Assembly: GCA_965222595.1 (NCBI GenBank)
Contig: CBDCUJ010000001.1
Coordinates: 235,522 to 299,521 of the forward strand
DNA from: Dehalococcoidia bacterium
Lineage (GTDB): Bacteria > Chloroflexota > Dehalococcoidia > Lucifugimonadales > UBA3495
Direction of reading: 5' to 3'
DNA: 64,000 nt
The number at the start of each line of letters is the position of its first letter. The first letter of the stretch is position 1. This document shows, piece after piece, positions 3,095 to 43,255 of this stretch. Position numbers and translations under genes: made by a program. Below the pieces are notes generated by a model. The model was not told the DNA's origin. It was given only the letters and a program-made list of their open reading frames with translations, and ran no database searches.

Positions 3095-4806
3095 CCCGAA
3101 TCCACCGAAGGGATGAGGTTACAGCAGCGTAATGGGCGATGAGGGGCAAGTGGAGGTGATGATCCGGGCACGATTTCGGGTAGAGGGGGCCGGTGGCTGT
3201 ATTCAGTCGCCGCGGGGAGACCTTGTGACCGTCTGCGGACGTTGGGCAGGGTGAGATGGTGGGGAGAGGACGCAGCGAGAGACCCACGCGGACCGGGCTG
3301 GCGCGAGTTGGCGGGGACGTTCGGTTGTCCGTTGGGTGGCTCAGGCACCGACGTTGCCGTCAGGCAGGGAGTGGAATCGCTCGCAATCGAGCGAGGGCGC
3401 GGCTGAACTGGGTTTCCCAGGGCCAATGCTTGGGAAGATGCAAAGTGAGGCGGCGCGCCGAGCGGGTGAGCCGTCCCGCCAGAGCGAAGAACCGTCGCCG
3501 GAGGGTCTTGGTGGTCACCACCTGCTCGCCCAGACCGATCCGCGCTGTCCAACGGGCCAGGTTGTGGGCCATCACCTGTATCGCCAGCCAGGCGGCGTTG
3601 GCGGCGAAGCGGCCCGACGGAAGATGATTCAACCCCACGCCGTACTTCAGGTCTCGAATGGCGTTCTCTATCTCGGCATGGCGACGGTGGTCGGCCTCCA
3701 GTTCGAGCATCTCCCCGTCCCGGTCGGTGATGAAGCCGTGATAGCTGTAGGTAGCGAAGAGGGCCAGTTGGGAACCGGGCGTGGGCTTCACCCGCCGGAC
3801 GATGAGCCGCACCGGTGCGGCGCCGGGCTCAGTCCGGAAGGGGACGTAGGTGGTCTCCGCTACATCGGCGGCGCCGTCCATCCAGTATGGGATGGGCCTC
3901 CAGTCCGCCTCGGGTATGGCCTCGATCAGATTGCGCAGGCTCTGGCGCTGGCGGACGGTGATGGAGAAGCGGACCTTCGTCTTGCGACAGACGGTCACGA
4001 CGGCATGGGTATAGAAGCCGCTGTCGGCCCGCACCGTGAGTTGTCCTTTGGCACCGGCGTAGCGTACCCGCCCCACCGTCTCCCGCAGGAAGTGGGCGGC
4101 GCCCCGAACGGTGTTGGCCCGGCCCTCCCGCAGCCGGGACATCAGCACGTCGCCGGTTCCGGCAGCGATGGCCAACAGCGGGTGATAGCCCCGCTTGCCG
4201 GTATAGCCGTGGTGACGCGCGCCCTCCTTGGCCAGACCGTAGGTCTCGCAGATGGTGGAATCGAGGTCTATGGTGAACGGCGCGTCGCCGGGTCCCGCCC
4301 CAGCGGCCCAGGCCCGCGCCAGCAGCTCCCGGCTCACCCGGTCCAGTTGACGGACGTGGCCCCACCGGAAGCTACGCAGGAAAGTGCCCAGGGTGGATGG
4401 CGCCTTCACCGTGCCGCCCAGGGTGCGGGCTGTCGCCCCGGTGCGCAACGCATCAGCGTCGTCAATGCAGTCGCCGCCCGCCAGTGCAGACGCAACCAGG
4501 GTCATCATCTTGTCGCCGGTGTTGGCCCGCCCCGGAGCGCTGCCGAGATCAAGGTGATAGTCTACGAGTTCCCCCAGCCCCAGGTGTTGGGCGAGGGTGG
4601 CCGGCAGGAGCAGGCCGGCATTGGCCACCAGGCGGTGATCGTCAAAGACGATTTGGATCCGGTCGGGGTGGTTGCGTGGTAGCATCTATTGGGTGCTCCT
4701 TTTCCGGGGTCGGTTTTTTGTTGCAAAACCATTATCCCAGAAGCACAGGAGCACCTTCTTGCCACTTCAGAACACTGACCTGACGCCCTCCTTCGGTGGA
4801 TTCGGG
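3095..4806 (-). mobile_element. IS1380-family insertion sequence (copy 2)
   Basis: Perfect 17-bp terminal inverted repeats CCCGAATCCACCGAAGG (3095-3111) / CCTTCGGTGGATTCGGG (4790-4806). 5-bp target duplication CTAAG (3090-3094 and 4807-4811). 1712 bp with one transposase ORF. Confidence 0.85.
3360..4685 (-). CDS. IS1380-family DDE transposase
   Basis: 441-aa ORF with FTIDLDSTICETYGLAKEGARHHGYTGKRGYHPLLA, LIVRRVKPTPGSQLALF, HRRHAEIENAIRDLKYGVGLNHLPSGRFAANAAWLAIQVMAHNLARW. Confidence 0.9.
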   Translation of the reverse strand: MLPRNHPDRIQIVFDDHRLVANAGLLLPATLAQHLGLGELVDYHLDLGSAPGRANTGDKMMTLVASALAGGDCIDDADALRTGATARTLGGTVKAPSTLGTFLRSFRWGHVRQLDRVSRELLARAWAAGAGPGDAPFTIDLDSTICETYGLAKEGARHHGYTGKRGYHPLLAIAAGTGDVLMSRLREGRANTVRGAAHFLRETVGRVRYAGAKGQLTVRADSGFYTHAVVTVCRKTKVRFSITVRQRQSLRNLIEAIPEADWRPIPYWMDGAADVAETTYVPFRTEPGAAPVRLIVRRVKPTPGSQLALFATYSYHGFITDRDGEMLELEADHRRHAEIENAIRDLKYGVGLNHLPSGRFAANAAWLAIQVMAHNLARWTARIGLGEQVVTTKTLRRRFFALAGRLTRSARRLTLHLPKHWPWETQFSRALARLRAIPLPA

Positions 4807-4811
4807 CTAAG

Positions 4812-5210
4812 GCGATCGAGTTCTATACGTCGGTTTTCGGGGCCACTGAGAAGTTTCGACTGACGGACCCCAACGGGCGCATTGGGCACGCCGTGCTCGA
4901 TTTCGGCGGTACGACGCTCATGCTCGCTGAAGAGTTCCCTGAATACGGCATCCTGGGACCGCTGACGTTGGGCGGCACCACGGTCACGATGCACCTGCAA
5001 GTCGACGATGCCGACGCGGTGATTCGTCGCGCGGCCGAGGCTGGCGCCGAGATCGAGAGCGAACCGGAGGACCAGTTCTACGGCGAACGGTCGGGCTGGT
5101 TTCGTGACCCTTCCGGCCATCGCTGGAACGTCGCCCATTTTCTCCACGAGGTTACGCCGGAGGAAATGCAGCGGCGTTTCACAGCGATGATGACAAGCAC
5201 GGCCAGCTGA
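4812..5210 (+). pseudogene. 3' fragment of the IS-split VOC/PhnB-like gene
   Basis: In-frame AIEFYTSVFGATEKFRLTDPNGRIGHAVLDFGGTTLMLAEEFPE...DQFYGERSGWFRDPSGHRWNV (track ORF 4893..5210 is its tail). Typical VOC/PhnB pattern. It lacks its own start because the IS separates it from 3044-3094. Confidence 0.8.
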
Positions 5211-5382
5211 CTCGACCAACTCGTCTCCAAGTCCCCTATCCCGTCCCTCCTGCCCACCAACTGGGCAAAATCAAGAATCTTCGTATTGCGGTTCATGTGT
5301 GGCCCTCACAGGGGTGGGCTGCCAGCCCTGTGAGGGCTCCGATGCGCCGCGTGGCAGGCCAATCCAGCCAGCGTCGCGGTTT

Positions 5383-6138
5383 CTACTCAGGGGACTTGAA
5401 GAGCGCTATGCGGTTGCCAGCGATGTCATAGAAGATGGCAATGGAGCCGAATCCTCCGGGAATCTCCATGGGTTGCATGAGGGCGGCGCCGCCCAGGCTC
5501 ACGGCCTTGTCGAGATACGCTTGGAGGTCGTTGACAATAACGGCGACGGAAGGATGGTTGGGGGGCATGCCCTCCATGTGCTGGAAGATGCCGCCGCCAA
5601 TCCCTCCAGATTCCTGTTGGATGAACCGGTAGTTGGCCTCCTCGTGATGGTCGATTTGCCAGTCGAACATCCCGGTGTAGAACTCAACGAGCGCCGCGGC
5701 GTCGCTGCCTCCAACCTCGAAGTGCGCCACCGGTGGACCGTCCCCCTTTGGGGGCATCTGTCCGTCCCATTCCGGCGGTGGTGCATACAACCCTATGGTG
5801 TTGCCGGCAGGGTCCCCGAACAAAGCGATGGAGCCCATGCCGGGCGCTATCTCCATCGGTGGCATGATGGCGTTCCCGCCCATATTTGCCACCTTATCCA
5901 GCGCCGCTTGAAGTTGGTCAACCTGCACATAGAAGGTGACATAGCTGCGCGCCGGCATATCCTCGGTTGTAGGCAACAAGCCTCCACCGATGCCGCCCTC
6001 ATTTGCCGGCACTATACCGTAGTTGCCCATCTCTTCGCCCTGAACGTCAATCTTCCATCCGAACAGGTCGCTATAGAACTGATTCAAGGCTGGCCCATCC
6101 GGGCCGGCAATTTCAAAGTGCACTACCGGGTTCCCCAT
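5383..6138 (-). CDS. Two-domain VOC (glyoxalase/bleomycin resistance/dioxygenase) family protein
   Basis: 251 aa with an internal duplication: VVHFEIAGPD...FGWKI...GGIGGG...MEIAPGMGSIALFGDPAGN and VAHFEVGGSD...FDWQI...GGIGGG...MEIPGGFGSIAIFYDIAGN. Confidence 0.8.
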   Translation of the reverse strand: MGNPVVHFEIAGPDGPALNQFYSDLFGWKIDVQGEEMGNYGIVPANEGGIGGGLLPTTEDMPARSYVTFYVQVDQLQAALDKVANMGGNAIMPPMEIAPGMGSIALFGDPAGNTIGLYAPPPEWDGQMPPKGDGPPVAHFEVGGSDAAALVEFYTGMFDWQIDHHEEANYRFIQQESGGIGGGIFQHMEGMPPNHPSVAVIVNDLQAYLDKAVSLGGAALMQPMEIPGGFGSIAIFYDIAGNRIALFKSPE

Positions 6139-6271: not shown

Positions 6272-7102
6272 TTACCTCCAGTCGTAGCCAGGTCTCCAGC
6301 CCAGCATTTGCTGCGCCTTTTCCGTACTGATTACGCTGGCAGTGCCGCTCAGCCCTTCCCGTATCTCCACCCGGTCGCCAAAGTTGTTTTTGACGATGTC
6401 AATCGTGGGCTCTTCGAAACGGCTGGAAGGCTGGGCGATCATAAACGCTTCATACTCTTCTATCTCCGCATCCAGCGCCAATACGTGGGCCTCGGCCACG
6501 TCCCTGGCATCGGCGTAGGCCCACATCACCAGCGTCAAGGGTTCCTCCGGTGTAGGGGCCGGCCAAGGGAACTCCGCCTGGACTTCCGGAAACGCCACAT
6601 TGGTAAACCGCAGGCTGACGACCGTCGTGCCTGAATTGCGGGCGATCATTCTGCCTATGTCCTCTCCGACCTGCTTGGTAAGGCCGTAGGGCTCGAAGGG
6701 CATCATGGGATGTTCCTCGTCCAATGGCAGGTACAGCGGCACGAAAGCATTCCCGTCGTGGGCCCACCCCATACCGAAGGCGCTGGACGAGAACACCACG
6801 CGACGCAGTCCCAACTCCGCTGCCGACATCATGACGTTGAAGTCGGCAGCCACGTTGTTTTCGAAAATGAACCTTGGCTCTGCCCGCAGCGGCCCGGGGA
6901 TGGCTCCCATGTGAACGACGGCTTCCGCTTCCTTGAGAATGCCTTCCACTGCCTTCCGGTCCATGAGATTGCAACGCACAAACTCCGCTGGAAGGTCATC
7001 GGCAGCCACCTGGTCTGTCGCCAGGACTTCTTTGTTCTGTTCCGCCAGCAACTGCACCACCCGGCGTCCCAGCCTTCCTGCCGCTCCGGTTACTACTATC
7101 AT
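6272..7102 (-). CDS. NAD-dependent epimerase/dehydratase (extended SDR) family protein
   Basis: N-terminal Rossmann motif MIVVTGAAGRLGRRVV. GGAGGA RBS upstream. 276 aa. Confidence 0.75.
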   Translation of the reverse strand: MIVVTGAAGRLGRRVVQLLAEQNKEVLATDQVAADDLPAEFVRCNLMDRKAVEGILKEAEAVVHMGAIPGPLRAEPRFIFENNVAADFNVMMSAAELGLRRVVFSSSAFGMGWAHDGNAFVPLYLPLDEEHPMMPFEPYGLTKQVGEDIGRMIARNSGTTVVSLRFTNVAFPEVQAEFPWPAPTPEEPLTLVMWAYADARDVAEAHVLALDAEIEEYEAFMIAQPSSRFEEPTIDIVKNNFGDRVEIREGLSGTASVISTEKAQQMLGWRPGYDWR

Positions 7103-20981: not shown

Positions 20982-22049
20982 ATGGAAAACGGCTTGATCC
21001 GAATAGGCTTGATCGGCGCCGGGGCCAACACCCGTCTCCGCCACATTCCCGGTTTCAGGGAACAGTCCGGAGTGGAAATCGTCGCCGTGGCCAACCGGAG
21101 CCGGGAGTCGGGTAAACGCATCGCGAGCGAGTACGAAATCCCCAAGGTCTACGACAACTGGCTGGAGTTGATGGAAGACGACAGCATCGACGCCGTCTGC
21201 GTCGGCACCTGGCCTTACATGCACCGCAACCTGGTGCTGGCCGCCTTGGAAGCCGACAAGCACGTACTCACCGAAGCCCGCATGGCCATGAACGCCCAAG
21301 AGGCCCACGACATGCTGGACGCCTCCCGCCAGTTCCCTCACCTGGTCACCCAGATAGTGCCCGCCCCCCAGACCCTGGAGGTCGACGCTACCGTCAAGGA
21401 ATATGTGGCCAACGGTTACTTGGGCGAAATCCTGGCGGTGCGGCTGCGGGTCTGCGACTATCACGGCCGCAGCAACCGGGCTGACACCTTCATCGACACC
21501 GAAGCGCCGTTGCACTGGAGGCAAGACCGCACTCTAAGCGGCTACAACATCCTGGGCATGGGCATCGGGTATGAGACCGTCATGCGGTACGTCGGTCCCG
21601 CTACCCGCGTTTCCGCCATGACCAAGGTGTTCGCCAACAGGCGCCGCGACGAGAACGGGATCGTACAGGCAGTGTCGGTGCCCGACCACGTCAACGTCCT
21701 GTGCGAGATGGCCTGCGGAGCCCAGGCCGACTTCAGCTGGAGCACCGTGACCGGTCTGCAGACCGGCACCGATTTCTGGATTTTCGGCTCCGACGGGACC
21801 ATCAGCCTGCAGGGTCCGCCTTTCAACAAGGTCCTGGGCGGCAAAAGAGGGGCCGAGCAGCTTGAGGAATTGCCCATTGCGCCGGAGATGCGGGGCAAGT
21901 GGCGGGCGGAGGAGGAGTTCTGCAACGCCATCCGTGGCACGGAGTCTATCACCCACACTCCCTTCGACATCGGCGTGCAATACATGGAGTTCACCGAGGC
22001 GGTGACCCGCAGTGCCCAAACCGGACAGGCGGTGTCGCTGCCGCTTTAG
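20982..22049 (+). CDS. Gfo/Idh/MocA family oxidoreductase (paralog 1)
   Basis: IRIGLIGAGANTRLRHIPGF Rossmann N-terminus. Shares long identical blocks with 22909..23946 (VAVANRSRESG, YDNW.EL.ED, GTWPYMHR, FTEAVTRSAQTGQAV). Confidence 0.85.
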   Translation: MENGLIRIGLIGAGANTRLRHIPGFREQSGVEIVAVANRSRESGKRIASEYEIPKVYDNWLELMEDDSIDAVCVGTWPYMHRNLVLAALEADKHVLTEARMAMNAQEAHDMLDASRQFPHLVTQIVPAPQTLEVDATVKEYVANGYLGEILAVRLRVCDYHGRSNRADTFIDTEAPLHWRQDRTLSGYNILGMGIGYETVMRYVGPATRVSAMTKVFANRRRDENGIVQAVSVPDHVNVLCEMACGAQADFSWSTVTGLQTGTDFWIFGSDGTISLQGPPFNKVLGGKRGAEQLEELPIAPEMRGKWRAEEEFCNAIRGTESITHTPFDIGVQYMEFTEAVTRSAQTGQAVSLPL

Positions 22050-22061
22050 GCGGAGGAGGTT

Positions 22062-22916
22062 ATGGGAGAGTTTACCTGGCAGATCGGCGTCTGGAGCGCC
22101 GACCGGGAGCACTTAGAAACGGTGGCCGCGCTGGTTGATACCGGCTCTTCCTATTCAGCGTTTCCCCGGACTATGCTCGAACGTCTGGGGATTGTACCGC
22201 GTTTCCTCCTGCCTTTCGAGATGGCCGACGGCAGCATCATCCAGAGAGATGTCGGCTTGGCTATGCTGGTGATTAACGACAGCGAGAGCTCCATGCGCGT
22301 CACATTCGGTGATGACGACGCCGAGCCCTTAATCGGCGCCAATGCGCTGCAAGAATTTTTGCTTATGGTAGACCCGGTTGAGGAACGGCTGATTCCCCGG
22401 ACAGGAAGAATGAAGCCGTTGAGGAGGGGGCAGCGAAATGGGATGTTTTATTGCTCCATAGAAGTCGGCGATCTGAACGGCGACAACTTAGAGACCGTGG
22501 AGGTACTGGCAAGCAGCAGGCCCGGATTCTTGCATCTCCCGCAGACGCTTCTTTACCGGCTTGGTATTTCACCCACAAGAATGTTGATATTTAAGAGTCC
22601 CGACGGGAACATCGTCGAACTGGGAGTCGCCGACGCACGGGTGCGGCTTGACGACCGGAGCGCGTCGACGCCGGTGGTCTTTGATGAAGACGCTGCCCCG
22701 GCGCGGCTGGGCCACGTCACGCTGGCCGGCCTCGGCCTGAAAGTTGACCCGGCGCAAAACCGCTTGGTTGATGAACTGCCACTGATGAAGCTGCCAGGAT
22801 GGTACGAAAAACAGCGATTACTGAAGGAATGGATGGAGCGGAATTGGCCAGAGCATAAGGCGCCCCGCGGATCTAACTCAAACCGTCCACCAGCAAGGGA
22901 GAATCACCATGGCTAG
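22062..22916 (+). CDS. Tandem retropepsin-like (clan AA) aspartic protease domains; the second domain lacks DTG
   Basis: Domain 1 has ALVDTGSSYSAF. Domain 2 aligns with it (MFYCSIEVGDLNGDNLETVEVLASSRPGFLHL...GLKVDPAQNRL) but has SSR in place of DTG. Overlaps the next gene start by 8 nt. Confidence 0.7.
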   Translation: MGEFTWQIGVWSADREHLETVAALVDTGSSYSAFPRTMLERLGIVPRFLLPFEMADGSIIQRDVGLAMLVINDSESSMRVTFGDDDAEPLIGANALQEFLLMVDPVEERLIPRTGRMKPLRRGQRNGMFYCSIEVGDLNGDNLETVEVLASSRPGFLHLPQTLLYRLGISPTRMLIFKSPDGNIVELGVADARVRLDDRSASTPVVFDEDAAPARLGHVTLAGLGLKVDPAQNRLVDELPLMKLPGWYEKQRLLKEWMERNWPEHKAPRGSNSNRPPARENHHG

Positions 22917-23946
22917 CGAAGGTATACGAGTCGGCCTAATCGGGGCCGGCCGGAACACCCGGGACCGCCATATTCCGGGTTTCCAAGAGGTAAACGGCGT
23001 GGAGATAGTCGCGGTGGCCAACCGCTCCCGGGAATCCGGGCGTCAGGCGGCCGACCAGTTCAACATCCCCACCGTCTACGACAACTGGCAGGAGCTGCTG
23101 GAAGACCCGACCATCGACGCCGTCTGCATCGGCACCTGGCCCTACATGCACCGGGTGTTGACCATCTCGGCCCTCGAGGCGGGCAAGCACGTGCTCTGCG
23201 AGGCCCGGATGGCGGCCACCGCCCAAGAAGCCCACGACATGCTCGACGCCTCGCGGGCCCGCCCCGACTTGGTCACCCAGATCGTGCCTTCCCCTCTTAC
23301 CTTCAAGGTGGACAACCTGTTGCAACAGAAGATCGCGGAGGGTTACGTGGGTCACATCCTGGCGGTCTCGGTCCAATCGTTGGCCCCCGCATTCATGGAG
23401 GCCGGAGGGCCGATGCACTGGCGCAACGACCGCGACCTGAGCGGCTTTAACATCCTCAACATGGGGATCTGGTACGAGGCCATGATCCGTTGGGTGGGGC
23501 GCGCTAACAACGTAATGGCGATGACCAGCATCAACGCTTCCCACCGGACCGGCGAAGACGGCAACCGTGTGCCGGTCAGTATCCCCGACCACGTCGACAT
23601 TCTGGCCGGGTTGGCCAACGGGGCCCAAGCCAACTTGCGCTTCAGCGCGGTGACCGGCCTCGCGCCCGGGAACGACGTTTGGATCTATGGCGCCGAGGGC
23701 ACTCTGCGGTTGGACTCGGGGTTGAACGTCTGGGGCGGCAAGCGCGGCGAACACCAGCTGGCGGAAATCCCCAATCCCGCCGAAGGACAGGCCTACTGGC
23801 GGGTGGAAGAGGAGTTCTGCAGCGCCATACGCGGCCAGGAAAGAATCACCCGCACCCCCTTCGACGTCGGCGTCCACTACATGGAGTTCACCGAGGCCGT
23901 CACCCGCAGCGCCCAGACCGGCCAAGCGGTAGCCCTGCCGTTATAG
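22909..23946 (+). CDS. Gfo/Idh/MocA family oxidoreductase (paralog 2)
   Basis: IRVGLIGAGRNTRDRHIPGF. Paralog of 20982..22049. Confidence 0.85.
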   Translation: MASEGIRVGLIGAGRNTRDRHIPGFQEVNGVEIVAVANRSRESGRQAADQFNIPTVYDNWQELLEDPTIDAVCIGTWPYMHRVLTISALEAGKHVLCEARMAATAQEAHDMLDASRARPDLVTQIVPSPLTFKVDNLLQQKIAEGYVGHILAVSVQSLAPAFMEAGGPMHWRNDRDLSGFNILNMGIWYEAMIRWVGRANNVMAMTSINASHRTGEDGNRVPVSIPDHVDILAGLANGAQANLRFSAVTGLAPGNDVWIYGAEGTLRLDSGLNVWGGKRGEHQLAEIPNPAEGQAYWRVEEEFCSAIRGQERITRTPFDVGVHYMEFTEAVTRSAQTGQAVALPL

Positions 23947-23968
23947 TGCTATCGAAGCGAGGGAACGA

Positions 23969-24325
23969 ATGGGAACGTTCAACTGTTCGGTCAGGCTAAC
24001 CAGCTTCGACGGCGAAAAGTCTGTAGACGTGGACGCGCTGGTCGATACCGGCGCCAGCTACAGCGTGTTTCCTGCCAGTCTGTTGGCCGACCTAGGGGTT
24101 TCGCCGGGCGATCGTGGCGAGTTTGAATACGGGGACGGTCGGCGCGCCGAGTTGGATTTAGGTCAACACTGGATCACGGTCGATGGTCGAAGTACTGTCA
24201 CTTGGTCAATATTCGGCGAGGATGAATCGACATTCCTGTTGGGGTCCTACGCGCTTGAAGGGGTGCGGCTTGGCGTAGACCCCTACTCCCAAAGGCTTAT
24301 CCCGATCATCGGGTTGATCAAGTAA
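23969..24325 (+). CDS. Single-domain retropepsin-like (clan AA) aspartic protease
   Basis: 118 aa. ALVDTGASYSVFPASLLADLGV and C-terminal GVRLGVDPYSQRLIP align with both domains of 22062..22916. Confidence 0.7.
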   Translation: MGTFNCSVRLTSFDGEKSVDVDALVDTGASYSVFPASLLADLGVSPGDRGEFEYGDGRRAELDLGQHWITVDGRSTVTWSIFGEDESTFLLGSYALEGVRLGVDPYSQRLIPIIGLIK

Positions 24326-24336
24326 AGATACACCCT

Positions 24337-24879
24337 CTACCTGTCCAGCAAATGCCGCATCGCCTGCGGGGCGGCCGTGGCGGCCCGTTCCCGAAGCTCA
24401 GAAACGGTCAACGTGACAATCGGGTGGTCGATGATCGCCAAGCCGTAGTCCGCGTCCCCCCGCATCCGGGCCATGGCGCGGGCTTGACTCACGAAGGGCT
24501 TGGTGGTCAACACCGTGGAGGCCACCCCCAGCAGCTCCATCTCCATCGCGTCGTGCACACTGCACGAGGTGCAGGAGCCTCATTCCGCCGTGGCGTGAAT
24601 CATCACGTCGCAGCGTTGGGCCAAGTCTTCCAACGCGCTGCGGTCGGCAGGCCATTGGTGGCCGCCCTTGTTGTATTCCAGCACTTCCTTCAGCGAATAC
24701 CGCTCGCCAATGGTCTCGGCCATCATACGCAACAGGTCCTCGGAGTGGGGCTTGTTGTTGGACAACAGTCCCAGCACCCTGCCATTGAGGCTGGCCGGGC
24801 GGGCGGCCAGCACAGCCTGGGTTGGCTGGTCGCGGTCCCGGGGGTCAAGGGCGTAAATACCTCTTGGTGATTCCGGCAT
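24337..24879 (-). CDS. UGSC-motif (UxxCxxC) protein, predicted selenoprotein with in-frame UGA at 24580-24582
   Basis: Track ORFs 24580..24879 and 24337..24558 share one frame and are separated only by TGA. The joined reading is ...CDVMIHATAE-U-GSCTSCSVHDAMEMELLGVASTVL... A stem-loop CTGCAC/CTC/GTGCAG (24560-24574) starts 5 nt after the UGA. Confidence 0.7.
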
Positions 24880-24912
24880 TTCCGATTTCCCTCCGGTGGC
24901 TCCCGGTGATTT

Positions 24913-25929
24913 TTACCGGGGGACCGTGATTTCCCTCGTAACCGAACGGCTGCTGCCCCAAGAAGTGATGGCGGCCATGAACTCCCCCGCATCCCCTCCG
25001 GCCGGCGCCACCGTGATACGTCCTGGTTCCGGGACGACACCGATGAGCCTCTCCCGGTCCGCCTCGGGCCCCAGCCGGTCGATGCGCCGCCACCGGTCCC
25101 ACTCCCCGGCGGGCAGCCGGGTCTTTTCGTAGACAAAGGCGGCGACTTGTTCCCGGGTCCAACCGAACGCGGCGATGTAGGCCATGAGCTCCTGGCTGAT
25201 CACCAAGACGACTTCCGAGATAGACGGTCCGAGGCCGAGCATGGCATGGGACGCGGCGGTGAGGAAACCTTCCGGCTCCCGGTCACCGTGGCCCTCCAAC
25301 TGCAACGGCGCGTTGGCGGCGACCATGGTGACGGTGCTGGAGCCTTCGTGGAAACCCTTGGCCTCCGCCAATGACCCCCAAGGGCTGGTATCGACGTCTT
25401 CAGCGAAGCAAAAGCTGTATTTGCCGGGATGGCCGAAGGTGCTTTTGTCCATGTCTTGAGCTACCGAACCGTAGTAGTTGGCTTTGACCAGGTTGATCGC
25501 TCGTCCGATGGCCGCGTTGGCCCGGTTCGCCTGCCCCATGAGGTTGACTCCCGGGTTCATGCCGATGTGGGAGGCGTAGGGGCCGCTCACTATCACGAGG
25601 TTCGCGATGCCGTTGGTGGATGTGCTGCTGGCGTGAAGATTATAAGTCCGGTCGCAGACCGCCGAAATTGCCGCCGCGACCACCGGAAAATGCTCCGGCA
25701 GGCAGCCAGCCATCACCGCGTTGACCGCCACGCTCTCAGCCTGAAACGTCTTGCGGCGAATGCCCTCGACACCCAGAACATAATCCGGAGCAAGGCTGCA
25801 ATATTCCAGCATTGCTGAGACGCGCTCCGGGGTGGGCGGAACGATTGGCAGGCCGTCAGTCAGCCCTTCCCGGAAGTAAAATTCCTGGGCCTCGTCCCAA
25901 TCGTTGAAGTGAAAATGCTCGGACAGCAT
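24913..25929 (-). CDS. Conserved hypothetical protein (338 aa), first gene of the UGSC operon
   Basis: Long ORF on the same strand, 34 nt upstream of the UGSC gene. Contains GLTDGLPIVPPTPERV...AVNAVMAGCLPEHFPV. I do not recognise the family. Confidence 0.6.
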   Translation of the reverse strand: MLSEHFHFNDWDEAQEFYFREGLTDGLPIVPPTPERVSAMLEYCSLAPDYVLGVEGIRRKTFQAESVAVNAVMAGCLPEHFPVVAAAISAVCDRTYNLHASSTSTNGIANLVIVSGPYASHIGMNPGVNLMGQANRANAAIGRAINLVKANYYGSVAQDMDKSTFGHPGKYSFCFAEDVDTSPWGSLAEAKGFHEGSSTVTMVAANAPLQLEGHGDREPEGFLTAASHAMLGLGPSISEVVLVISQELMAYIAAFGWTREQVAAFVYEKTRLPAGEWDRWRRIDRLGPEADRERLIGVVPEPGRITVAPAGGDAGEFMAAITSWGSSRSVTREITVPR

Positions 25930-26000
25930 GGCGCCACTTTAAGACACAAGCCGCCCCAGGCGCAATTGCCGGTAATCTCTCCCCCGGTCCCCCTCCCTTG

Positions 26001-26060
26001 GTATCCAGGAGGGCCCGGTGGTATCCAGGAGGGCCCGGTGGTATCCAGGAGGGCCCGGGT
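26001..26060. repeat. Three tandem copies of a 20-bp unit GTATCCAGGAGGGCCCGGTG
   Basis: Units at 26001-26020, 26021-26040 and 26041-26060 (the last ends GGT instead of GTG). Lies 72-131 nt upstream of the minus-strand start at 25929. Confidence 0.9.
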
Positions 26061-27444: not shown

Positions 27445-28272
27445 TCAGACCTCCAGTGGAGTATCATCGCGGTTGGCCCATTCACCCATGGAGGCGTCGT
27501 AGTTTTTCGTCTGGTTGTAACCGACCAGTTGGAGGACGAACACACCGTGCGCCGCACGGATTCCGCCCTGTCAATACGTGTAGACTTTCTTCTCGGGCGT
27601 GATGCCGGCCTCCGACAGGACTCGCTTGATTTCGTTGGCTGGCTTGAAACGGTGAGTGCCCCGGTCCATCACGTTGAACCATTCCAGGTGAATCGCCCCA
27701 GGAATGTGCCCAACACGCTGGTTGCCCCGGGAATCGCTGCCGTCCCATTCGGCGTCGCCCCGGACGTCCCAGATCACGGCGTCGGCCAGGCCGCAGGCCT
27801 CCTTCAGCTCATCGACCTTCACCAGCAACGACTCATCCCGCTGCGGTGTGAAAGTAGCGCCAGCGGCCCCGGAAGAGCGATCGACGCCGACACCGTTCCC
27901 GGCGGCTAGCCAACCCCTCCAGCCGCCGTCGAGCACTTTGACGTTGGCATGCCCATAGGTGTTGAGGGCCCACCAGAGCCGGGTAGCGTAGAGGCTCTGG
28001 GAGTTGTCGTAGGCGATTACCAGCGTGTCGTCGCCGACACCAAGCCCCTCGCACATGGCTTTGAATTGCTCAGAAGACATCAGGTGGACCCGGCCGGTGT
28101 CCGGGTCCTTTTCGAAGTTGTCGGGGACTATCACCGCGCCGGGAATATGCCCGCGGTTGTAAGCGGCGTCGACGTCGCAATCGACGACCACGACGTTCGA
28201 GTCGTCCTTGTGGGCGGTCACCCATGCGGCATCGACAAGATATTCGGGATGAGTGTAGTTCTCGGTCGCCAT
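27445..28272 (-). CDS. Two-domain rhodanese (thiosulfate sulfurtransferase-like) with TGA at the catalytic Cys position (predicted selenocysteine)
   Basis: Track ORF 27571..28272 ends ...KKVYTY at TGA 27571-27573. The same frame continues QGGIRAAHGVFVLQLVGYNQTKNYDASMGEWANRDDTPLEV to TGA 27445-27447, which matches the rhodanese active-site loop and C-terminus. A stem-loop CCGTGC/GGC/GCACGG (27545-27559) starts 11 nt after the UGA. Confidence 0.75.
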
Positions 28273-40297: not shown

Positions 40298-40749
40298 GCG
40301 GATCGCGCTCCCAAAGGGAAAATCAAGCTGGGCAAGCCGCTCCCAATGCGGCCGAAAGACGCCGGGATTGTACCATGGCGTCCGCTGGGAAGCGGATGGC
40401 CGTCAGCCTGTTTCGTGGGCTGTCCCCTGGGCTGCGTCCGTGTCGCAGAACCGGCCGCTGTCTTGCAACTCGGGGTCGATCTCCGCCCGTGTCCGTTCCG
40501 GTAGCGGCTCGAACGGGCCGTATGCGGCGAGGTAACGGCGGGCCAGTCCCGAAACAACCCTCAGGCCGCCACCTCTTGGACGATTCCTCGATGCCTCAGC
40601 CGGACCAGTCGAGGCGGTAGAACTGCGGCGGCGGCTCCAACTTGACAACACCGGCGGCTGAGCACATCATTAGGCAAAGCTTTTCGGACAAGACTACGCT
40701 AGGCGCGTTGTCACACTTTTACAATAGAATATCCCGCACAACAAGATCC

Positions 40750-40958
40750 AACGATGGAAGTGCCCTTCCCAGGGCTTGAACGGGGAAGCTGGTCAAAGTC
40801 CAGCACTGTCCCGCAACGGTAGGTCCCGATTTATCGGGGCGAGTCCGGTCCACGGCTTCCATCGATGTTCTTACCTTCGAGGAAAGGTACTGGCATAACC
40901 CGTTAGCCGCAAGAAGCCCTGTTCCTTCCCGGAGTAAGCGTTGGAACAGGGTTTTTTA
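40750..40958 (+). promoter_or_regulatory. Cobalamin (B12) riboswitch with an intrinsic terminator expression platform
   Basis: P1 GATGGAAG (40752-40759) pairs with CTTCCATC (40856-40863). Core AACGGGGAAGCTGGTCAAAGTCCAGCACTGTCCCGCAACGGTA (B12 box) and GAGTCCGG. Followed by a terminator hairpin. Sits upstream of BtuF-like ABC importer genes. Confidence 0.75.
40917..40957 (+). terminator. Rho-independent terminator (riboswitch expression platform)
   Basis: CCCTGTTCC (40917-40925), 17-nt loop, GGAACAGGG (40943-40951), then TTTTTT. Confidence 0.7.
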
Positions 40959-40997: not shown

Positions 40998-42095
40998 GTG
41001 ATCAGGATTCGACTTATCCTCTGTGCAATGGCGTTGCTGGCCGTATCGGTGCTGGTTGCGGCGTGCTCGAACGCTGCCCCCACGGCGCCGCCAACCCCGA
41101 CGGTTGTTCCGACCGTATCGCCGACTTCAGCTCCGGCCTCGCCGACTATCGTCCCTACCGGCGGGCCTCCGGCCGAAGCAACCGCCGCCCCGACCGCCGA
41201 GCCTACTGCGCCGCCGCCGGCGTCCACCCGGCCCGCGTCCCAACCCACGGCGGTCCCGACGCGGACGCCCTCGCCTACCAACACTCCCAAGCCGACCGCC
41301 ACGCCAGCCCCGGTGGTTGTCGCGGATACCAACGGCAACCCGGTCCAATTCGACACCCCGCCGGAGCGCATGGTGGTCTACGACGGGGCGGCTGTTGAGA
41401 TGCTGTTCGCCATCGGCCAAGGGCATCGCGTCATTGGAACCCACATTTTCGTTACGTACCCGCCGGAGACAGCAGGCATCCCCAAGATTGGCGACGCTTT
41501 CAACATGGACATCGAAGCCATCGTCGCCTTGGAGCCGGACTTGGTGTACGTGTTCTACGACCGTTTCAACGAGGACCTGGAGCGGGCCGGGTTGAAAGTG
41601 CTCTACATCAAGAGTCTGTCCGATGGCTTCACCGAGGTAGCCAACCAGATACGGATGTGGGGCCTCATCACCGGCGGGACCGAGGAGGCCGGGAAGCTGG
41701 CCGGCGAGTTCGACGCGCGAGTGGCCGCCATCGAAGACAGGCTGGACGACATTGAATCAATCAAGACCGTCTACTCCCATGACCTTGAATGGTGGACGCC
41801 GGGACGCAAAACCCTGGTCAACGACGTGTTCGAGCTGCTGAAACTTCAGAACATCGCCGACTTCGAAGGCTATCAGCAAATCAGCCCCGAGGTGGTGGTG
41901 GCCGCCAACCCCGACATCATCATGGGGTCGATAGAAGACGTGACCGGGGAGCCGGCGCTGTCCGGCCTGTCCTCAGCCGCGCCTGACCGCATCTTCACGC
42001 TCAGCGTGGCCAACTCCTTCAGCGTGGCCGGGCCGCGGTTTATAGACGCCGTGGAAGAAATGGCCGCCTGGGTCTATCCCGACCGCTTCGAGTAA
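40998..42095 (+). CDS. ABC transporter periplasmic-binding lipoprotein (cobalamin/siderophore, BtuF-like)
   Basis: Lipobox LVAAC, a Pro/Thr/Ala-rich linker, then a class 8 binding-protein core (ERMVVYDGAAVEMLFAIG...PDLVYVF). Controlled by the B12 riboswitch. Confidence 0.8.
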   Translation: MIRIRLILCAMALLAVSVLVAACSNAAPTAPPTPTVVPTVSPTSAPASPTIVPTGGPPAEATAAPTAEPTAPPPASTRPASQPTAVPTRTPSPTNTPKPTATPAPVVVADTNGNPVQFDTPPERMVVYDGAAVEMLFAIGQGHRVIGTHIFVTYPPETAGIPKIGDAFNMDIEAIVALEPDLVYVFYDRFNEDLERAGLKVLYIKSLSDGFTEVANQIRMWGLITGGTEEAGKLAGEFDARVAAIEDRLDDIESIKTVYSHDLEWWTPGRKTLVNDVFELLKLQNIADFEGYQQISPEVVVAANPDIIMGSIEDVTGEPALSGLSSAAPDRIFTLSVANSFSVAGPRFIDAVEEMAAWVYPDRFE

Positions 42096-42118
42096 CCCGT
42101 AGCAGAGGACTAGCAGCA

Positions 42119-43255
42119 GTGGCCGAAAGGAGCAGCAAGCCCCCCCTTCACCCCCCCAGTGGGGGGGTTGTAAGGGGGGAGGGACCGGCGGCCTTGGATC
42201 TCGGCAGAATCGCCGGGGGGTTGGTCGGCCTTCGCTACCCGTGGTGGCGGCTGGCCTTCGGCGGGGCCGCTTTCTTAGTAGCGGCGGTATTCGCGGCCAG
42301 CCTTGGCTCCGTCGACATTCCCTTCCTCGCGACGGCCCAGATCGTGCTCTCCCGGCTGCCCGGCATTGACTCCCCGGCGAATACTCCGGCGGCGTGGGAC
42401 ACTATTGTGTGGCAACTCCGGCTGCCCCGGGTAGCCTTGGCCGGGATCGTGGGAGGCGGCCTGGCGATGGCCGGCGCCGCCTACCAGGGGCTCTTCAAGA
42501 ACCCGCTGGCCGATCCCTACCTGGTGGGGGTCGCGTCGGGGGCGGGGCTGGCGGCAGTTATCGTTCTGCTGACCGGAGTGCCTTTATTCATCGGCGGGTT
42601 CAGCTTCCTCCCCGCCGCGGCATTCGTTGGCGGCGTCTCAGCGGTGGCGGTGGCCTATTCCGTCGCCCGTAGCTCCCGGGGAACGCCCCTGACCACCCTG
42701 ATCCTGGCGGGCGTGGCCATTGCCTCACTGGCCGGAGCGGTAACCAGCCTGCTGATGATCCGCAGCGACCCAGAGCTCCGTCCGGTCATTAGCTGGCTCT
42801 TGGGCAGCTTCATCTCGTCAGAGTGGAGCGAGTGCGCCATCGTTCTGGCCTACCTGGCCCCCAGCATGGTCGTGCTCTTGGGGTTCGGCCGGGTATTGAA
42901 CGTGCTGCAGTTGCGGGAGGAACACGCCTCGATGCTCGGCGTCGAAGTCGAAAAGGTGAAGTTGCTCCTCATCGTGGCGGCCACCATGACCACAGCCGCC
43001 GCCGTATCCTTCACCGGGCTCATCGGCTTCGTCGGGCTGATCGCCCCCCACGTCGTGAGGCTGATCTGGGGGACCGACTACCGGTTCATCCTGCCCATGT
43101 CGGCCATTCTCGGGGCCACGTTCCTGGTGCTGGCCGACCTGGCGGCCCGCACTGTGGCGAGCCCCGGCGAACTGCCCGTTGGTATCGTCACCGCATTCTG
43201 CGGCGCGCCATTCTTCCTGTACCTGCTCCGGCGCCGCGGCGCCGGTATGGTCTAG
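42119..43255 (+). CDS. FecCD/BtuC-family ABC permease
   Basis: Multi-TM protein with LAGVAIASLAGAVTSLLM and GLIGFVGLIAPHVVRL patterns. Start uncertain because the N-terminus contains a translated repeat hairpin. Confidence 0.8.
   Translation: MAERSSKPPLHPPSGGVVRGEGPAALDLGRIAGGLVGLRYPWWRLAFGGAAFLVAAVFAASLGSVDIPFLATAQIVLSRLPGIDSPANTPAAWDTIVWQLRLPRVALAGIVGGGLAMAGAAYQGLFKNPLADPYLVGVASGAGLAAVIVLLTGVPLFIGGFSFLPAAAFVGGVSAVAVAYSVARSSRGTPLTTLILAGVAIASLAGAVTSLLMIRSDPELRPVISWLLGSFISSEWSECAIVLAYLAPSMVVLLGFGRVLNVLQLREEHASMLGVEVEKVKLLLIVAATMTTAAAVSFTGLIGFVGLIAPHVVRLIWGTDYRFILPMSAILGATFLVLADLAARTVASPGELPVGIVTAFCGAPFFLYLLRRRGAGMV
42140..42179. repeat. C-rich/G-rich hairpin repeat within the permease N-terminal coding region
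   Basis: CCCCCCCTTCACCCCCCC AGT GGGGGGGTTGTAAGGGGGG. Inner 7-bp stem (42151-42157 / 42161-42167). Encodes PPLHPPSGGVVRGE. Confidence 0.7.

Follow-up and report, generated by a model that had tools for sequence, protein, structure and literature searches.

A probable UGSC-family selenoprotein gene and its unnamed partner gene in a Dehalococcoidia bacterium

A stretch of 64,000 nucleotides from a Dehalococcoidia bacterium (GenBank assembly GCA_965222595.1, contig CBDCUJ010000001.1, positions 235,522 to 299,521; hereafter the window, whose own numbering is used throughout) carries on its minus strand a two-gene unit, in which a gene for a 338-amino-acid (338-aa) protein (24913..25929) is followed by a UGSC-family gene (24337..24879) that contains an in-frame TGA. 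The UGSC gene runs from an ATG at 24879 to a TAG at 24337–24339, and its sole in-frame TGA lies at 24580–24582. When this codon is translated as selenocysteine (Sec), the 180 codons give a 19-kDa product of 99 aa, U and 80 aa, with Sec as residue 100 (...CDVMIHATAE-U-GSCTSCSVHDAMEMELLG..., which reads HATAE-U-GSCTSCSVHD); the redox motif codons U100-G-S-C103-T-S-C106 occupy 24562..24582. A Shine–Dalgarno-like GGAGGG was read from the sequence at 24889..24894 (minus strand), and its GGAGG core ends 10 nt before the UGSC ATG. An earlier note on this DNA had proposed that one gene of 180 aa had been cut in two by the open reading frame (ORF) track, which was correct: there is a single frame with one TGA, which is why the track splits it, and a single Pfam domain match crosses both parts. 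The parts are 24879..24580 and 24579..24337; the second ORF tracked at 24337..24558 is in the same frame, but it starts at a GTG 21 nt past the TGA with no stop in between. The gap to the 338-aa ORF had been given as 34 nt and is in fact 33 nt.

With U entered as Cys, the joined protein matched PF24696 (‘UGSC family’) over residues 11–177 (E 3e-45, 154.8 bits against a cut-off of 25), and it scored 112.4 bits with NF041046 (‘UGSC family (seleno)protein’), slightly under the equivalog cut-off of 125. This family was described from the Sargasso Sea and Global Ocean Sampling (GOS) selenoproteomes, with 255 Sec and 21 Cys forms in GOS (PMC2398784), and is among the most abundant predicted selenoprotein families of marine metagenomes, with no assigned function (PMC2398784, PMC13188914). 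The statement in the earlier note that UGSC-motif proteins were listed among predicted marine selenoproteins thus holds, and the gene belongs to a known family rather than representing a new selenoprotein. Related loci were collected with the 338-aa protein as query, one genome per species, which gave 79 loci with identities of 41–96%, all in Dehalococcoidia, Chloroflexota or SAR202 metagenome-assembled genomes; DAOUHF01 and CBDCQN01 are among the 96%-identical genomes. TGA stands at the identical column in 80/80 UGSC genes from 78 of these loci, and protein conservation is unbroken across it, extending over the 80 downstream codons and including the seven that precede any possible restart. 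Together with the suppression of synonymous change downstream, this places the TGA-spanning arrangement well beyond chance. Distant homologues have Cys at the Sec column, as had been expected if the TGA encodes Sec (GD-C-GSCTSW in P0402–P0409 and GD-C-GNC in P0275, hence C-G-[SN]-C where the window protein has AE-U-GSC). At the level of aligned sequences, this column pattern is the classical Sec/Cys signature.

The window protein thus resembles the described family in its full-length domain match, in U-G-S-C at the Sec/Cys column and in the large excess of Sec over Cys forms among close relatives, as in GOS. It differs in the third Cys of its subgroup, whose motif is HATAE-U-GSCT[SA]C, and in its score below the NCBI equivalog cut-off. 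U/C100 and C103 are at least 90% conserved (alignment A6), and C106 is replaced by Trp in the sampled Cys-type and fusion forms; the UxxCxxC arrangement to which attention had been drawn is therefore present in the window protein, and is the motif reported for the glycine reductase subunit GrdB (review, PMC13188914), but its third Cys is not a feature of the UGSC family. Public protein sets carry Sec-type UGSC genes only as fragments of 95–99 aa. Additional copies with TGA were found in two loci: in L007 the gene is followed at a distance of 1 kb by a partial second copy (6367–6660), and L070 has two full copies (3453–3908 and 5065–5589) on either side of its 338-family gene.

UGA100 is most likely read as Sec with the help of a hairpin of 6 bp and a 3-nt loop, a selenocysteine insertion sequence (SECIS)-like element to which SelB binding is putative. 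This hairpin, CGUGCA-GUG-UGCACG, lies at 24552..24566 (minus strand; nt 17–31, with the U of UGA as 1) and starts 13 nt after the UGA; its loop G23-U24-G25 is at 24558–24560, and a possible seventh pair, U16-A32, would add 24567 and 24551. An alternative hairpin, CUGCAC-CUC-GUGCAG at 24560..24574 (minus strand; nt 9–23), overlaps it, so the two are not formed together. In the Dehalococcoidia set both pair well and neither covaries, and they are not distinguishable there. Frozen synonymous sites do separate them. Of 90 conserved degenerate codons, just four show no synonymous variation across the 80 sequences (E99 GAA, C106 TGC, S107 AGT and V108 GTG; median codon entropy elsewhere 1.24 bits), and the consecutive codons C106-S107-V108 form the top and loop of the hairpin at 24552–24566, whereas the third bases U24 (AGT) and G27 (GTG) would be free under the alternative.

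Four distant Sec-type fusion genes (L090, L171, L172 and L173) point the same way. The nt 17–31 hairpin is fully paired in all of them, with compensatory changes at pair 21–27 (C-G to G-C) and pair 18–30 (G-C to A-U), while the nt 9–23 hairpin has 1–3 mismatches in each. On alignment A10 (16 sequences), the former is 96.4% paired with two compensatory pairs and a covariation of 0.195, against 0.081 in shuffles, none of 500 of which reached the observed value; the latter is 85.4% paired with no compensatory pair and a covariation of 0.097 that is the same in every shuffle. The hairpin at 24560–24574, which the earlier note had put forward, is thus present in the sequence but was ruled out as a SECIS, since it shows no compensatory change and is broken in the four distant genes; it probably arises incidentally from two Cys codons (TGC...TGC). 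The minimum free energy fold also offered a longer lower stem (nt 6–12 with 34–42), which was rejected because it is only 82% paired and lacks clear covariation. No signal came from folding single sequences (z 0.67, and −0.88 in the test of the alternative hairpin), and no model in an Rfam scan matched the UGSC hairpin.

A hallmark of bacterial selenoprotein genes is a conserved stem-loop shortly past the UGA whose apical loop contains a G, and the nt 17–31 hairpin, with its GUG loop, is of this kind. Its G23 and U24 stand at the same positions, counted from the U of UGA, as in the Escherichia coli fdhF element; the two are alike in being short hairpins that start 11–13 nt after the UGA with G23/U24 in the loop, and differ in that the window loop has 3 nt instead of 4 and no bulged U. 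Wherever the residue encoded just before the UGA (E99, 24583–24585) is Glu, in 69 sequences, its codon is GAA and never GAG, which may reflect a codon-context constraint on Sec insertion. A second selenoprotein gene, likewise with an in-frame UGA, lies 3 kb upstream of the UGSC gene: it encodes a two-domain rhodanese (PF00581 twice; 27445–28272, minus strand) whose TGA at 27571–27573 falls at the active-site position (...VYTY-U-QGGIRAAHG...) and is followed after 11 nt by the hairpin CCGUGC-GGC-GCACGG (27545–27559, nt 15–29), likewise of 6 bp with a 3-nt loop. We counted this similar hairpin as support for the UGSC SECIS, and the second UGA gene as an indirect indication that the genome may encode Sec machinery.

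The 338-aa protein, encoded by the first gene of the pair, could not be named: no Pfam or NCBIfam model matched it or 30 diverse relatives, in agreement with the earlier note, and sequence-profile searches of the PDB with both families returned nothing meaningful. Its family is large, with at least 5625 homologues in one search and at least 4302 clusters at 50% identity in another, 774 of them below E 1e-30. An AlphaFold2 model of the protein was obtained with good scores (predicted local distance difference test, pLDDT, 83.6; predicted template modelling score, pTM, 0.87); its best Foldseek neighbours, class I fumarate hydratase and MmgE/PrpD, reached template modelling (TM) scores of 0.29 at most and were rejected as unconvincing. 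The motifs are DGLP (25–28), PPT (31–33), NAVMAGC76, R136-A-N, G142-R, C174-x-A-E177 and AGG (310–312), and the residues kept down to about 30% identity are D25-G-L-P, P31-P-T, N70, M73-A-G-C76, G116-P, R136-A-N, G142-R, C174, E177, W184 and G311-G (alignments A1 and A5). C76 and C174 are the two nearly invariant cysteines; C174 begins a strand and is preceded by a conserved loop (161–171) where confidence in the model is lowest. At about 710–740 aa, six members (P0249, P0267, P0292, P0293, P0303 and P0341) are roughly double the usual length, contain two to four matched stretches each and seem to have arisen by tandem duplication of the 338-aa domain.

The linkage of the UGSC and 338 families is near-obligate and extends to gene fusion. 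From the 338-aa side, 78/79 loci contain a UGSC homologue, the lone exception being a 2.3-kb contig; the UGSC gene is directly downstream in about 70 of the 79, and in a deeper branch it lies 2–3 kb away on the opposite strand. From the UGSC side, a metagenome scan with Cys back-translated at the Sec column, which for this reason returned only Cys-type genes, gave 80 loci, 72 of them with a same-strand 338-family gene adjacent or one gene away; in each of the remaining eight, the contig ends within about 1 kb on one side or both. Seven further Cys-type contexts, Sphingobium included, all have the pair (the Sphingobium partner is 38% identical to the window 338-aa protein, E 3e-68), and across Cys-type contexts both gene orders occur, with overlapping stop and start codons in some. 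The pairing spans Chloroflexota, Actinomycetota and Alphaproteobacteria, and no other neighbouring gene that was tested is conserved to this degree. The link between the two genes that the earlier note suggested is thus supported.

Among the best 150 representatives of the 338 family, 45 have N-terminal extensions, and 28 of these contain a UGSC domain. P0272, P0275, P0308 and P0345, two of them from Actinophytocola, are fusions in which an N-terminal UGSC domain is followed by a C-terminal 338 domain, and Sec-type fusions are encoded in L090 (2662–4257), L171 (786–2420), L172 (3–1568) and L173 (1159–2805), where public gene calls split them at the TGA into products of about 84–96 and 414–435 aa. 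Because public calls either truncate at the UGA or split the fusions, the UGSC family is systematically mis-annotated. These fusions are very probably the UGSC/Unknown_1 fusion of 2008 (PMC2398784). The window arrangement differs from that fusion (Fig. S1A of the same paper) in that the genes are separate and in the opposite order. In place of UGSC, the 338 domain is fused to PF02943 (FeThRed_B, ferredoxin:thioredoxin reductase beta-like) in 2/45 extended members, for example P0291 (470 aa), and to AhpC/Redoxin domains in a further 2/45 (alignment A8).

The UGSC family is suggestively, from profile comparisons, a distant stand-alone relative of the C-terminal Sec module of selenoprotein B of glycine, sarcosine and betaine reductases (GrdB, GrdF, GrdH) and of PrdB of D-proline reductase, without being GrdB or PrdB. 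TIGR01917 (GrdB) was matched by 12 of 20 UGSC members (best E 7.5e-7), always over GrdB positions of about 328–406 of 431, and fewer members matched GrdF, GrdH, TIGR01918 and PrdB. An hhalign comparison of UGSC with a profile of marine PrdB-like sequences from the GOS supplement placed Sec on Sec (P 2.8e-4 and 4.1e-4, probability 35–41%). The aligned region begins with the strand that precedes Sec and ends about 55 residues past it, with the same U-x-x-C spacing and a common pattern of strand, U-x-x-C, helix, E-x-x-G-[IV]-P-T, strand and [YH]P[LI]G loop, and the window protein has the full UxxCxxC (U100, C103, C106). The differences are considerable: UGSC scores far below the family cut-offs (at best 28.4 against 602 bits), the GRDB N-terminal domain PF07355 was not matched by any of 13 UGSC members at E≤10, the partner protein is another one, and the hosts are aerobic. 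None of 30 members of the 338 family matched Gly_reductase, GrdE or PrdA models, a GrdE/PrdA, GrdA, GrdC or PrdC context is not present at the window locus, and a search of the PDB with the PrdB-like profile found no solved GrdB or PrdB structure.

The fold of UGSC is predicted to be flavodoxin/Rossmann-like rather than thioredoxin-like. An AlphaFold2 model of P0407, a Cys-type homologue with 27% identity to the window protein, has a pLDDT of 89.2 and five beta-alpha units, with C/U-G-S-C at the start of the helix that follows strand 3. Its Foldseek neighbours are flavodoxin-like proteins, the N-terminal domain of Fe-dependent alcohol dehydrogenases and lumazine synthase (TM 0.3–0.4). The GOS paper had placed UGSC with thioredoxin (Trx)-like redox proteins (PMC2398784), which is not supported here, because no thioredoxin-fold protein is among the top 50 Foldseek matches. 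UGSC does share with Trx-fold U/CxxC redoxins (Trx-, SelW- and peroxiredoxin-like) the U/C-x-x-C at a helix N-terminus, likely selenenylsulfide cycling and, in some lineages, thioredoxin-reductase genes near the pair, but differs from them in its five flavodoxin/Rossmann-like beta-alpha units.

The neighbourhood of more distant loci offers a candidate reductant. Thioredoxin-reductase-like genes with a CxxC adjoin the pair in 15/87 distant loci, in several sequence types and at several positions. Other recurrent neighbours are DUF6282 (13 loci, often between both genes), Amidohydro_2 (10) and acyl-CoA dehydrogenases (17), and the clusters also hold aldehyde dehydrogenase, enoyl-CoA hydratase, CoA ligase, Rieske and luciferase-like genes, which suggests catabolism of organic compounds. 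The Sphingobium cluster (L080) holds Amidohydro_2, aldehyde dehydrogenase, enoyl-CoA hydratase, CoA ligase and TetR genes. In L106 (1017–4440), genes for a thioredoxin-reductase-like protein (1017–1964), a Cys-type UGSC, DUF6282 (PF19799) and a 338-family protein lie on one strand, an arrangement also observed in L094, L097, L099, L100 (cut before the 338-family gene), L103 and L105. This four-gene arrangement suggests a larger system in some lineages.

A mechanism is proposed, as a rather probable reading of the sequences: UGSC, as a Sec–Cys redox subunit, would reduce the active site of the 338-aa enzyme or complete it, and a thioredoxin-type system would recharge UGSC. The two genes would encode two subunits of one redox enzyme. 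The Sec100–Cys103 pair would alternate between selenol/thiol and selenenylsulfide states and pass two electrons to an active site of the 338-aa subunit that could be made up of the nearly invariant C76 and C174 with conserved Arg, Glu and Asp residues, after which a thioredoxin-reductase-type system would re-reduce it. We infer the physical complex, the direction of electron flow, the reductant and any substrate. The redox relay is supported by the fusions of the 338 domain to FeThRed_B or AhpC/Redoxin domains and by the thioredoxin-reductase-like genes beside the pair. A broader proposal is more tentative and somewhat less likely than not: that the pair is a widespread two-subunit or fused reductase of Chloroflexota, Actinomycetota and Proteobacteria, in which the selenium subunit would be an offshoot of the GrdB/PrdB Sec module that moved into aerobic heterotrophs and the catalytic subunit would have a fold with no solved relative. 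The enzyme would be recharged by a thioredoxin-reductase-type system and would help to degrade organic compounds, in some lineages alongside DUF6282 or Amidohydro_2 hydrolases.

Several observations weigh against these proposals. Neither a tRNA-Sec nor any sel gene was found in the window, by the Rfam scan or otherwise; the four large ORFs checked for sel genes encode cytochrome oxidase I, an ABC exporter, a CoA-transferase and haem A synthase. The window protein itself did not match any GrdB/PrdB model (TIGR01917, TIGR01918, TIGR04483, PF07355) even at E≤10, and the best TIGR01917 match is a Dehalococcoidia homologue with which it is 45% identical, so that the link to GrdB is transitive; the comparison with GrdB/PrdB profiles invited by the earlier note thus gave weak but repeated matches for family members and none for the window protein. 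The fold was modelled on the 27%-identical P0407 and not on the window protein. Neither in the window nor in the 79 Dehalococcoidia loci is the pair accompanied by a nearby gene for a thioredoxin reductase, a DUF6282 protein or an amidohydrolase. The Sphingobium partner has Ala in place of C76, and both redox residues are lost in the fusions P0272, P0308 and P0345 (D-IGAA, E-IGGS and D-MGVS), which shows that the UGSC domain can persist without redox chemistry.

A GrdB/PrdB-like role is the main alternative, though a rather unlikely one. Here Sec100 would be no electron relay but a catalytic nucleophile that attacks a substrate on the 338-aa subunit and cleaves a C–N, C–S or C–O bond via a selenoether, with Cys103 resolving it to a selenenylsulfide; the partner could perhaps take the part of GrdE/PrdA, with a carbonyl cofactor generated by self-cleavage at Cys174. 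The family-level similarity to the Sec region of GrdB, GrdF, GrdH and PrdB, with Sec on Sec, is in its favour, as are the UxxCxxC of the window protein, which is that reported for GrdB, and the nearly invariant C174, which starts a strand after a conserved low-confidence loop. These points are set against a partner family that matches neither GrdE/PrdA nor Gly_reductase models, the missing GRDB N-terminal domain and a third Cys that is not conserved, and the fusions of the 338 domain to peroxiredoxin-like and ferredoxin:thioredoxin reductase-like modules point instead to disulfide exchange. Glycine and proline reductases are, moreover, enzymes of anaerobic fermenters, whereas the hosts here are aerobes: Sphingobium carries the pair, and the window organism is aerobic, with a haem A synthase gene and one for cytochrome c oxidase subunit I in the window.

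That UGSC works alone as a general-purpose thiol/selenol oxidoreductase, with the 338-aa gene merely syntenic, would accord with its published grouping with Trx-like redox proteins (PMC2398784) and with U/CxxC at a helix N-terminus, but is very unlikely given that the linkage holds from both sides across Chloroflexota, Actinomycetota and Alphaproteobacteria, in both gene orders, with overlapping starts and stops and true fusions, and that no other tested neighbour is equally conserved. Just as improbable is a role of the 338-aa protein as an accessory to the selenoprotein (in its maturation, in supplying selenium or sulfur, or as a chaperone) instead of a catalytic partner. The Sec-rhodanese gene 3 kb upstream and weak Foldseek matches of the 338-aa model to selenophosphate synthetase (E 0.07–0.12) could be read in this way, but the pair is equally conserved in Cys-type organisms, where no selenium handling is needed, the rhodanese is linked in only 6/79 loci, and the SelD-like matches, at TM 0.17, are not significant. 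Termination at the TGA, which would leave a 99-aa product and a downstream frame that is an untranslated relic or a separate small gene, agrees with the 95–99-aa products of public gene calls and is nevertheless scarcely credible: the 80 codons past the TGA are conserved as protein in all homologues, the seven ahead of a possible restart among them, full-length Cys forms exist, a hairpin with compensatory changes follows the TGA, and Pfam matches residues 11–177 as a single domain.

Earlier work had already described the selenoprotein family with its Sec/Cys pattern and had noted a fusion. No mention of the near-obligate pairing with a large unnamed family was found in the literature and family libraries, nor of a link to the GrdB/PrdB Sec module, a flavodoxin-like fold or a thioredoxin-reductase association. 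A search of the literature on selenocysteine in SAR202 found nothing relevant. In metagenomes from the ocean and from freshwater, UGSC proteins rank with the most abundant of the predicted selenoproteins, and since their description in about 2005–2008 the family has been without assigned function, partner or structure. It now gains a concrete partner, a probable link to the GrdB/PrdB Sec module, a differing fold assignment and a candidate reductant, which would turn an orphan family into a testable two-protein system; the window locus is an ordinary member of it and is of value as an entry point.

Upstream of the pair, a conserved motif, TTGCGC-N18-TAAAGT (25936..25965, minus strand), stops 6 nt short of the ATG of the 338-aa gene; no Shine–Dalgarno box precedes this ATG. 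The motif (ATTGCGCC...CTTAAAGTG) is common to L001–L004 and L066, where it lies just upstream of position 4001, and did not pass a scan for the sigma-70 consensus; it is possibly the promoter of a leaderless transcript. A perfect tandem repeat of 3 × 20 nt (TGGTATCCAGGAGGGCCCGG) at 25999–26058, 70–130 nt upstream of the 338-aa gene, is strain-specific, since the 96%-identical L001 and L002 have a single copy.

The window neighbours of the pair encode GFO/IDH/MocA, aspartyl protease, AHSA1, ArsR and rhodanese proteins. Over the 79 loci, GFO/IDH/MocA is kept in 35, rhodanese in 6, and ArsR and AHSA1 in 6 or fewer each, which is too seldom for any of these four to be a consistent third partner. 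A module of GFO/IDH/MocA and retropepsin-like aspartyl-protease genes occurs twice at 20982–24325 (plus strand), convergent with the UGSC gene (20982–22049 with 22062–22916, and 22909–23946 with 23969–24325); the protease at 23969–24325 was checked against Pfam, and that at 22062–22916 was recognized by its DTG motif and its similarity to the former. Farther away, a cobalamin riboswitch (RF00174, 55 bits) is located at 40741–40874 (plus strand), upstream of the ORFs at 40998–43255.

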